Origin: Escherichia coli
GTDB taxonomy: Bacteria > Pseudomonadota > Gammaproteobacteria > Enterobacterales > Enterobacteriaceae
Length of the DNA stretch: 64,000 nt
NCBI RefSeq assembly: GCF_001677475.2
Contig: NZ_CP015229.1
Strand: one strand, 5' to 3'
Made by a program: the position numbers
Shown: positions 12,001 to 15,000 of the stretch, piece by piece
How the letters are laid out: every line of letters starts with the position of its first letter
Position numbering within the stretch: position 1 is the first letter of the stretch

Positions 12001-15000
12001 TTTAATTATCTGAGATAAACTCAACGTCAAGAGGTGGGTTATGATTAGATATAGTGGAATATTTCTATCGCTGTTAATGCTTTCAGGTTGTGCAACCGAA
12101 GCATTGAAGAATGAACAAGCTGAAACTGTTATTACTGCGGGTAACAAGGCGGTTGCGGCGAATGCAAGTTTCTTTAAACAATACTATGCTTCTCGTGAAA
12201 ACTTCCTTGTTAATTTTTATGCGACTAATCCGGATTGTGCATTGCGACCTGATTATGAAACGATTATGGAAAATAATACTAATAAAGAGTCCTTATGTTT
12301 GCAATCAGAGAAAGGGGGGAAAACATCGTATAAAGATATTACTAAAATTCAATTGGCAACAACAGAAAAACAAAAACTACTGGCTTCACTTGAGGTCGTT
12401 AATAGTATGAGTTCCTATGTGGAGTTGTTGACGGTGGGTATGGATGTTGAGGATAGTAAACAAATTATATTACTTAATCAGGCGCTCGATCACGCAAACA
12501 ACGCCCAAAAACTACTTGGCGTTTCAGAAGGTGAAGAACTGACTAAGTCAGCTGTGGCTGTTAAAGATTTAGTTCAATATTTCAATGGATTATACAAAGA
12601 GAAGATTAAATCAGAAAATGTTGGTAAAACGGTAGGTAGTGACTGGCCACGACTTCAAAGAAATTTACAAGATTTACTTGATGATATAGCAACGAAACAG
12701 CAGCAAATGGATCGGAATAATTTTGCGAACATCAGTAATAATTTTTATTACTATAATAAGGCCCGGGCAAATACTAAAAATATAGAATTTAAGACGTTAA
12801 AGAACAGGCAGGAATTTTTGAGTGCAGTAATTAATCTTAATGAAAGCAGATTGCGTTCATCTGATCCGGCGGCTCCAGCAATACAAGCTATTAATGCCTT
12901 CATGGATAAAGGAAATCATCTACAAGATTTATACTCTAATAAATCTCTTTCAAAAGCGGATTTAGATCGTAGGAATGAGATCCTGCGTTCTCAAGTTATT
13001 AGTGGTCTACAGGCGTCAGAGGAGCTGGCAAAACTTCTTATTGCCAGCGGAGTTATGTTATAGGAGGTCATTATGAACGATGTGCAAAATCGACGAATAC
13101 TGGCATTGCTCAATATGCTGTACTATGCCTTAGGAAACCGAACAACCTGCGATATATGTCACAAATATTTTATTCTGGTTTTGTCGGTAATGAATAATCT
13201 GACAATTAATTATGGCTCGCAAACGTCACCAGAACTGACTGGTATTAGTTATGAAGATGCTAATGATTTGATCACTGAATTAATACTGTTTATTGAAGAC
13301 GTCAATGCGGATAATGATATGGAATATCCCGCACACTTGAATAAAATTCAAGCTCTTCTTAATTTTGCCGTGGCTAATTAAGCCATTCAGTATCTAAAAT
13401 TAGCACCTCAAGAGGCGATCTTTTGAGGTGCTTTCCCTTAATAATCAATCCCTATTTGCGCCTTAACACCGGCATCAAACGCATGTTTGATGGGGCGCAG
13501 CTCACTTACCGTATCCGCCAGTTCAAGAATATCCCGATGACAGCCTCGACCCGTGATAATCACCGTCTGTTGATGTGGACGTTCATTTAACGCCTGCACC
13601 ACTTCTTCCAGTGGCAAATAGTCATACGCTACCATATAAGTCAGCTCATCAAGCAAAACCATATCCAGTGAGGAATCAGCAAGCATCCGCTTTGCATGTT
13701 GCCAGACTTCGCGGCAGGCGGCGGTATCAGACTCGCGGTTTTGTGTATCCCAGGTAAAGCCCGTTGCCATCACCTGAAACTCAACGCCATGTGGCTCCAG
13801 CAGATTGCGTTCGCCATTAGGCCAGGTGCCTTTAATAAACTGCACGACGCCCACTTTTTTTCCGTGACCAACTGCGCGTGTTGCCGTACCAAATGCCGCG
13901 GTGGTTTTGCCTTTTCCATTGCCGGTAAAGACGATGATAATACCGCGTTCATCCTGGGCCTGGGCCACACGAGCATCTACTTTTTCTTTCACTCGCTGCT
14001 GACGCTGTTGGTAGCGTTCATCACTCATTGGGAAATTCCTGGTTTACGGCCCGGTTGGGCGTCAAAGGTCATGCCGGTTTTACGGCGGCTGTCATCGCCC
14101 ATCAGCCAGAGGTAGAGCGGCATGATATCAGCGGGTGTTTTAAGTTTCTGTGGATCTTCGGTCGGGAAGGCGCTGGCACGCATTGCGGTGCGCGTACCGC
14201 CTGGGTTAATGCAGTTGACACGCAGGCGCTGCTGATATTCATCGGCCAGTACCTGCATCATCCCTTCGGTGGCAAATTTCGACGCTGCATATGCGCCCCA
14301 GTTGGCTCGCCCCTGACGTCCAACGCTTGATGAAGTAAAGACCAGTGAACCGGCGTCAGATTTGAGTAATAAAGGAAGCAGTGCCTGGGTGAGCATAAAG
14401 GTGGCATTAACGTTGACCTGCATGACGTCCTGCCAGACCTGCGGATTTTGTTCGCTCATTGGGCAAACATCGCCGAGCAATCCGGCATTATGCAAAACAC
14501 CATCCAGACGCGGATAATTAACGGCAATGCGCTGTGCCAGTTGTTGGCAATCTTCGGACGTGCAGGTCAGCAAATCGAGAATAAACCACTGTGGCTGACG
14601 CCCAGTTTCTTCGTTTATGTGGCTGGCTACCTGACGTAATTTTTCTTCATTACGGCCCAACAGAATCACTGTCGCACCATAGCGTGCATACGTCTTCGCT
14701 GCTTCACGACCAATTCCATCGCTGGCTCCCGTCACCAGGATAATGCGATCATTGAGTAAATCTTGTTTTGGTTGGTAATGCATGGCTACTCCTCAACGAC
14801 GTTGTCTGTCGCGCTGCCAGTGTACTTTATGACTTTGGGGCTTTATGCCTGAAACAGAAGGGCATTTCAATCAGCCTGGGGCGATAACACCGCAAAATGG
14901 ATACTTTGTCATACTTTCGCTGCAATAACATCTCTGCGAGACGGCCAAACATGCCTGTTGTAAACTGTGAGCCAAAGCGTTGTTTAACCAAGGTGGGGAC

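Follow-up and report, generated by a model that had tools for sequence, protein, structure and literature searches.

The immunity proteins Im7 and Im9 of the nuclease colicins are small (about 85-100 amino acids, aa), acidic and four-helical, are encoded directly 3' of a larger partner with which they are co-expressed, and belong to loci that are mobile and polymorphic. We describe a gene of similar layout at positions 13073-13381 (plus strand) of a 64,000-nucleotide stretch of Escherichia coli DNA (contig NZ_CP015229.1 of assembly GCF_001677475.2; the whole stretch is called the window below), which encodes a 102-aa acidic protein immediately downstream of a lipoprotein gene. The proteins TraS and TraT of F-like plasmids provide a second parallel: there, too, the gene for an outer-membrane lipoprotein adjoins that for a small partner and the two show allele-specific diversity, and the likeness extends to a distant copy of our pair that sits in a conjugation gene cluster. 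The small protein also recalls the ZAS anti-sigma factors (RsrA, ChrR), which are cytoplasmic, redox- or metal-responsive helical bundles of ~90 aa with a CxxC motif at the N-terminus of a helix and His residues from other helices. In addition, we compared it with the helical bundles of MLKL, plant CC-NLR and HeLo proteins and with the export chaperones FliT and FliS.

In layout, the pair resembles the colicin immunity genes, TraS/TraT, the ZAS domains and the helical export chaperones, and it lacks the feature that defines the family wherever a test is possible. In contrast to the partners of Im7 and Im9, the larger protein here is a Sec/Lol lipoprotein without a detectable toxin domain; neither sequence nor profile comparison links the small protein to the Im proteins, and it does not track the variable domain of its partner. 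To our knowledge, Im proteins lack the conserved CxxC and His that are present in the small protein. TraS is an integral inner-membrane protein encoded 5' of traT, whereas the small protein is soluble and encoded 3' of the lipoprotein gene, the lipoprotein has no Pfam TraT match, and the distant copy of the pair in the conjugation cluster is foreign cargo of low G+C content (GC) rather than a core transfer gene. Assignment to the ZAS anti-sigma factors was rejected: the H-x3-C-x2-C motif is absent, with an invariant Asn22 in place of the required His four residues before C26, there is no match to the Pfam family zf-HC2, and no sigma-factor gene lies nearby, the neighbours being rluB and cobO. 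Compared with MLKL, plant CC-NLR and HeLo bundles (8-14% sequence identity), the small protein differs in being acidic and in standing alone; scores just as high are reached by designed bundles, and AFDB50 gave nothing significant. FliT and FliS gave a weak structural score and serve flagellar or type III substrates, whereas the lipoprotein here has an ordinary Sec/lipobox signal. The genre itself is a familiar one, in which a mobile low-GC cassette encodes an exported protein and a small acidic partner that is co-translated with it.

The two genes form an obligate two-gene operon, with the following central features:

12041-13063, plus strand: lipoprotein gene (340 aa), with a signal peptide, the lipobox LLMLSG/C17 and Ala at +2
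13062-13067, plus strand: AGGAGG, the Shine-Dalgarno sequence for the small gene, which overlaps the stop codon of the lipoprotein gene and lies 5 nucleotides (nt) 5' of the ATG
13073-13381, plus strand: gene for the 102-aa acidic soluble protein, a predicted four-helix bundle

The lipoprotein stop codon (TAG, 13061-13063) and the ATG of the small gene (13073) leave a gap of 9 nt. This arrangement of gap and Shine-Dalgarno sequence is kept in all alleles, in Citrobacter and in the distant homologue (GGAGG, 14-nt gap). The short gap, the Shine-Dalgarno sequence at the upstream stop codon, the lack of a terminator between the genes and their co-occurrence across taxa make the small gene a well-supported operon partner of the lipoprotein gene, with predicted translational coupling. 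RNA structure that would sequester the Shine-Dalgarno sequence at the gene junction was unsupported (z = -0.84). The first-pass annotation of the window, made from the sequence alone, had listed the coordinates, the 9-nt gap, the AGGAGG, a single CxxC and an acidic C-terminal half, and all of these are present.

Both genes occur together with great regularity. The small gene was found in 1234 of 5426 complete E. coli genomes (~23%), as a near-identical copy in 775 and at 60-80% identity in 459. The variable middle of the lipoprotein gene gave the same numbers (1234 of 5426; 775 and 459), as did a 301-bp junction probe (1234 genomes; 775 and 459), which was contiguous in 1228; co-occurrence is judged here from genome counts and not from genome lists. 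Outside E. coli, the pair occupies the same rluB/cobO site in E. albertii, E. whittamii and Citrobacter, where identity to the window copies is 54-56% for the lipoprotein and 59-63% for the small protein (Citrobacter values). A degenerate DNA pattern for helix 3 of the small protein returned 24 true matches from metagenomes, all of the Escherichia type and of this family only, and lipoprotein sequence lies directly 5' of the small gene in every one (24/24).

The distant copy belongs to one lineage of integrative conjugative elements (ICE). Its small protein has 95 aa and 35% identity to that of the window, and the gene lies 14 nt 3' of a gene for a 347-aa lipoprotein with 29% identity. This pair and an Mrr_cat nuclease gene lie in a 2.7-kb insert of 28-34% GC, which splits a conjugation gene cluster of 56% GC in a PFGI-1-class ICE; the position of the insert is occupied in a related Serratia element by a 285-bp gene only. 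The cassette is accessory and horizontally mobile. The Mrr_cat gene, restriction-endonuclease-like and convergent, lies at 6459-7220 (minus strand) of the ICE contig L013, in a low-GC insert that spans about 4600-7300, and has a weak match to the PADLOC candidate PDC-S02 (E 4.9e-4). PADLOC v2 gave no match for five family members of both proteins of the pair.

The first-pass annotation had proposed that the small protein is a partner of the lipoprotein, and had named independent segregation of the two genes as an observation that would speak against this. The equal counts (1234 genomes for each gene), the contiguous junction in 1228 genomes and the retention of the pair across taxa bear the proposal out, and no independent segregation was seen across genomes. 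Since the pairing holds across E. coli, the other taxa and the ICE, segregation gives no reason to reject the partnership.

Judged by its substitution pattern, 13073-13381 is a real protein-coding gene under purifying selection. A base-composition calculation gives a probability of ~6e-4 per start for a 102-codon open frame to arise by chance at 35% GC. Between E. coli allele classes, the proportion of nonsynonymous differences (pN) is 0.135-0.162, compared with a saturated synonymous proportion (pS) of 0.80-0.82, and the ratio of nonsynonymous to synonymous substitution rates (dN/dS) is 0.14-0.26 among unsaturated pairs and 0.15 against E. albertii. The lipoprotein gene has a similar dN/dS of 0.05-0.32.

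The small protein has a pI of 4.4, and its residues 52-102 include ten Asp or Glu but one Lys or Arg. AlphaFold2, supplied with a 13-sequence alignment, predicts a four-helix bundle (helices 3-21, 27-41, 60-78 and 82-95) with a predicted local distance difference test score (pLDDT) of 90.2 and a predicted template modelling score of 0.84. No transmembrane segment was found, the best 19-residue Kyte-Doolittle mean being 1.06. The N-terminus has two Arg residues followed by ILALLNMLYYALG and superficially looks like a signal peptide. However, most alleles have Asp14 in the hydrophobic stretch, the N-terminus of the ICE homologue is hydrophilic, and residues 3-21 are packed into the bundle as its helix 1 in the AlphaFold model, with pLDDT about 95; we therefore rejected the signal-peptide reading, in agreement with the first-pass annotation. 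Three conserved elements stand out in alignment A1 of the family:

13148-13162, plus strand: codons C26-D27-I28-C29-H30, with C26 and C29 invariant in 13/13 homologues
13253-13300, plus strand: helix 3, codons 61-76, the most conserved stretch of the family
13334-13336, plus strand: codon H88, invariant in every homologue

The single CxxC lies in T25-C26-D27-I28-C29-H30-K31-Y32, where H30 is conserved across Escherichia and Citrobacter and replaced by Lys in the ICE homologue. Helix 3 carries the signature A63-N64-x-L-I67-T68-E69-L70-x-L72-F73-I74, and the invariant residues of the protein include C26, C29, H88, N22, S52, E54, A63, N64, I67, T68, E69, L70, L72, F73 and I74. From this pattern of conservation we reasonably infer a putative Cys2-His metal or redox site, with H88 as a candidate third ligand.

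As far as our sequence searches reach, the small-protein family is uncharacterised and restricted to Escherichia, Citrobacter and one ICE lineage. No match above threshold was found in Pfam-A, NCBIfam, PHROGs or PADLOC; the best sub-threshold hits were zf-FCS (E 0.14), DUF5891 (0.037, in one member) and two PHROGs (E about 0.04). The Pfam scans covered the proteins of the window, all members of alignments A1 and A2 and two additional lipoproteins. PDB sequence profiles matched neither the small protein nor the lipoprotein. Word-indexed single-sequence and profile searches led beyond Escherichia and Citrobacter to the one ICE lineage only, a phmmer search of 1.84 billion representative proteins added solely the ICE homologue, and one scan of a genome collection returned E. 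albertii and E. whittamii only. No new relative came from tblastn of the ICE lipoprotein against plasmids, nor from three viral-contig scans and tblastn of both proteins against phages; the idea of a phage moron was rejected. Literature searches by RefSeq protein accession or flanking-gene names returned nothing relevant to either protein. Structure prediction, one of the checks suggested by the first-pass annotation, delivered the confident four-helix bundle and no specific fold match that would point to a function: comparison with solved and predicted structures gave nothing significant beyond a generic four-helix bundle.

The lipobox of the larger protein follows the pattern [LVI][ASTVI][GAS]C, as LSGC in Escherichia and Citrobacter and as LSSC in the ICE copy, with an invariant Cys. 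Besides this residue, exactly two cysteines are invariant, C66 and C86. Searches of Pfam, NCBIfam, PADLOC, PHROGs and PDB sequences yielded no usable match and no toxin domain, and alignment A2 of the lipoproteins contains no invariant His or Arg and no catalytic-type motif. The predicted model is almost all alpha-helical with pLDDT 55, a score so low that the fold search was uninformative. The Citrobacter lipoproteins alone matched the Pfam family HEPN_DZIP3 (P0027 residues 137-221; E 8.5e-4, score 19.6). A HEPN assignment was rejected, and because the Rx4-6H active-site motif is not conserved, the match is probably helical noise.

Variation between E. coli alleles is distributed very unevenly along the operon:

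11911-12040, plus strand: AT-rich upstream region and 5' untranslated region of the operon, at least 93% identical in all E. coli allele classes
12252-12971, plus strand: hypervariable centre of the lipoprotein, about codons 72-310, with recombination junctions at its borders and a sliding-window nucleotide identity of 33-82% among E. coli allele classes

The identity of at least 93% extends through codons 1-72 of the lipoprotein gene; promoter, signal peptide and first helix are common to all E. coli alleles (dS 0.24), while the remainder is saturated. In the centre, alleles differ with dN of 0.34-0.35 and dS above 1.6. A sharp recombination junction lies at about codon 72 (12041-12251 versus 12252 onward). 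The small gene of the window class has about 70% nucleotide identity to the other classes. Synonymous sites are saturated between E. coli alleles, whereas the flanks are 93-100% identical, which points to either a very old maintained polymorphism or repeated import from other taxa. The E. coli loci compared fall into at least three types by their lipoprotein centre and into only two by their small protein. The most informative comparison is that of strain YDC107 (L003) with an O166:H15 strain (L005), whose lipoproteins differ at residues 73-300 with dN of 0.34 and are identical at residues 301-340 (dN 0), and whose small proteins are 91% identical (dN 0.047). Since the centres differ and the small proteins are nearly alike, the small protein is not matched to the hypervariable centre of its partner.

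We tentatively favour the explanation that the small protein serves the lipoprotein as an accessory factor in the cytoplasm, and that both belong to a conflict-type envelope cassette. In this scheme, it would remain in the cytoplasm, its amount would be kept in a fixed ratio to that of the lipoprotein by translational coupling, and it would hold or deliver the lipoprotein precursor by way of the conserved N- or C-terminal parts of the latter, without acting as an allele-specific immunity protein; alternatively, it may feed back on expression of the operon. The putative Cys2-His site would bind zinc or sense the redox state. The cassette as a whole may be an envelope module that excludes phages, conjugative elements or bacteriocins or defends against them, and the variable centre of the lipoprotein would be the part exposed to the antagonist. 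A chaperone and a regulator cannot be separated by sequence alone.

Several points weigh against this explanation. No Sec/Lol lipoprotein is known to us that depends on a cytoplasmic chaperone of its own. A direct regulator role is unsupported because the small protein is acidic and has no recognisable DNA- or RNA-binding motif. Conservation is the whole basis of the putative metal site, and a population-genetic pattern and a single ICE lineage are that of the conflict reading; the PADLOC scan of the pair proteins gave no match, and the flanks in Escherichia and Citrobacter are housekeeping genes rather than a defence island. The association between the small-gene allele and the lipoprotein C-terminus is inseparable from physical linkage, and both genes are under purifying selection, with no overt positive selection.

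A further step, which we regard as rather doubtful, would combine these elements into a conflict module that spans two compartments. At the envelope, the polymorphic lipoprotein would encounter the invader, be it a phage, a conjugative pilus or a bacteriocin, while inside the cytoplasm the zinc- or redox-dependent bundle would execute or control the other half of the response; the alleles would be ancient and balanced in Escherichia and Citrobacter and exchangeable through ICE. The population pattern does match that of loci under long-term antagonistic selection, given presence or absence at a fixed site, saturated alleles within near-identical flanks, a recombining lipoprotein centre and a distant copy in an ICE. 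The carriers include major extra-intestinal lineages, with the window-type allele in the ST131 strains EC958 and JJ1886 and also in SE15, yet in RefSeq both genes are labelled as encoding hypothetical proteins. If a function in exclusion, defence or host interaction proved true, the cassette would be a new envelope-linked system and would give a role to a new family of small Cys2-His helical proteins; otherwise, it would be one more orphan accessory operon among many.

That the small protein is instead a cognate immunity protein or antitoxin, neutralising in the producer a lipoprotein that acts as a toxin or bacteriocin-like effector, much as Im proteins neutralise nuclease colicins, appears unlikely. 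A small acidic helical protein immediately 3' with predicted translational coupling is the layout expected of such a system, and the patchy, mobile distribution with ancient alleles fits it as well. The pattern of gene decay seems to favour it further. The lipoprotein gene is frameshifted in strains IAI39 and CE10 and additionally hit by IS1 in AR_0013; it is a pseudogene in the E. albertii type strain NBRC 107761 (L019 2898-3919), where a 1-nt deletion at position 727 leaves open reading frames (ORFs) of 244 and 96 aa; and it is fragmented in the ICE copy L015. In each case, the small ORF is intact. However, the lipoprotein gene is a 3.3-fold larger target, and because of this the asymmetry is not evidence for immunity: loss of the lipoprotein alone in at least four lineages, and of the small gene alone in one metagenome scaffold, is compatible with target size. 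That scaffold, which has a truncated small gene beside an intact lipoprotein gene, would count against immunity, though weakly, as it may be an assembly artefact. The predicted compartments differ, with an exported lipoprotein and a partner that has no signal peptide, the lipoprotein shows no toxin domain, invariant His or Arg, or catalytic-type motif, and in the L003/L005 comparison the small protein fails to follow the changes in the variable domain of the lipoprotein. Among the immunity, chaperone and regulator roles offered by the first-pass annotation, immunity is for these reasons the least supported, while the partnership underlying all three is upheld.

Insertion sequences have entered both genes in strain MSB1_4I (L021 764-1461 and 2735-3715): the lipoprotein gene carries IS1A at its 5' end, and the small gene is interrupted at nucleotide 161 by ISKpn26, a member of the IS5 family. 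Several short-read contigs likewise end at the nucleotide-161 site (P0014), which suggests that insertion there may be recurrent or widespread.

Another reading makes the pair a two-part defence or exclusion system, in which the four-helix bundle would be a cytoplasmic effector or sensor, for example a membrane disruptor of the MLKL, plant CC or HeLo kind, triggered by the lipoprotein when it detects an invader. RPW8 is among the AFDB50 matches, the pair is ICE cargo beside the Mrr-type nuclease gene, and presence/absence polymorphism with old alleles would fit a conflict system. Nevertheless, the protein is acidic, unlike lipid-binding death domains, no signal route is apparent from an outer-membrane lipoprotein to a soluble cytoplasmic protein, and PADLOC gave no match; we therefore consider this reading improbable.

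There is likewise little probability that the small protein is an independent passenger, that is, a small protein of the regulator or connector type (such as one that senses redox state or metal and modulates a host pathway) whose only tie to the lipoprotein is the common transcript. Its allele history is partly uncoupled from that of the lipoprotein centre, CxxC and His are conserved under purifying selection as strong as that on the lipoprotein, and the small gene has stayed intact in copies with a broken lipoprotein gene. On the other hand, no lineage was found to have one gene without the other, and this holds even for the ICE copy at 29% and 35% identity; the signals of tight coupling are conserved.

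It is hardly credible that the small protein is an exported haem or disulfide protein, a periplasmic cytochrome-like partner with a Tat or Sec signal (two Arg and the hydrophobic stretch) and CDICH as a c-type haem CxxCH: class II c-type cytochromes are indeed four-helix bundles, and CxxCH and the Arg-Arg-hydrophobic N-terminus are found in all Escherichia and Citrobacter members, but the ICE homologue has CDNCK, with no His, and a hydrophilic N-terminus and so neither CxxCH nor an export signal, the putative hydrophobic core contains Asp14 in most alleles, the 13 N-terminal residues are among the best conserved of the protein, unlike a signal peptide, helix 1 is packed in the bundle at pLDDT about 95, and no cytochrome family of Pfam matches.

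The pair lies between housekeeping genes, in the order trpH(rnm)-yciO-yciQ-rluB and then cobO(btuR)-yciK-sohB-yciN-topA, as an islet with a hairpin near each end:

11873-13437, strand not assigned: accessory islet of two genes, which fills the rluB/cobO(btuR) spacer exactly
11891-11910, strand not assigned: GC-rich hairpin 3' of rluB, within the islet, terminator-like on both strands in a terminator scan
13402-13432, strand not assigned: hairpin with a 13-bp stem in the convergent gap between the small gene and cobO, found by RNA folding and with a terminator-like match on the minus strand

The islet, which is bounded by the stop codons of rluB (11872) and cobO (13438), has 1565 bp and a GC of 0.32-0.41 compared with about 0.50-0.56 for the flanks. 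The site is empty in K-12, where the rluB/cobO(btuR) spacer has 38 bp; the alignment of K-12 with the window ends at the rluB stop and restarts at the cobO stop, and neither repeats nor mobility genes were found. The first hairpin is unlike the hairpin of the K-12 spacer. The second (-20.7 kcal/mol, z = -4.5) was equalled in stability by 0 of 200 shuffled sequences and is likely a bidirectional terminator that ends the two-gene operon. A sigma-70 consensus scan upstream of the lipoprotein gene found no convincing promoter, and an Rfam scan of the islet gave no match.

Strain HS-02 (L006, NZ_CP172818.1) was considered as an example of the empty site and rejected as a poly-A assembly artefact, and K-12 was taken instead. 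In this 'complete' genome, the rluB-cobO spacer (L006 2523-2977) consists of ~455 bp of near-pure poly-A that holds a short recognisable fragment of the small gene, GCGGATAATGACATGGAATATCC, and looks like the islet after poor polishing or garbling in assembly.

Two flanking genes showed minor peculiarities. YciQ (DUF2207; window 8890-10785, plus strand) has a glycine-rich C-terminal tail, NYSGGGAGGGAGGGGGGGW, and the annotated coding span of yciQ differs among strains (1884-1896 nt). On contig L007 (4210-5340), sohB is called with 376 aa, compared with 348-349 aa elsewhere; the same contig bears the most divergent pair of the Escherichia/Citrobacter type (P0009/P0025).

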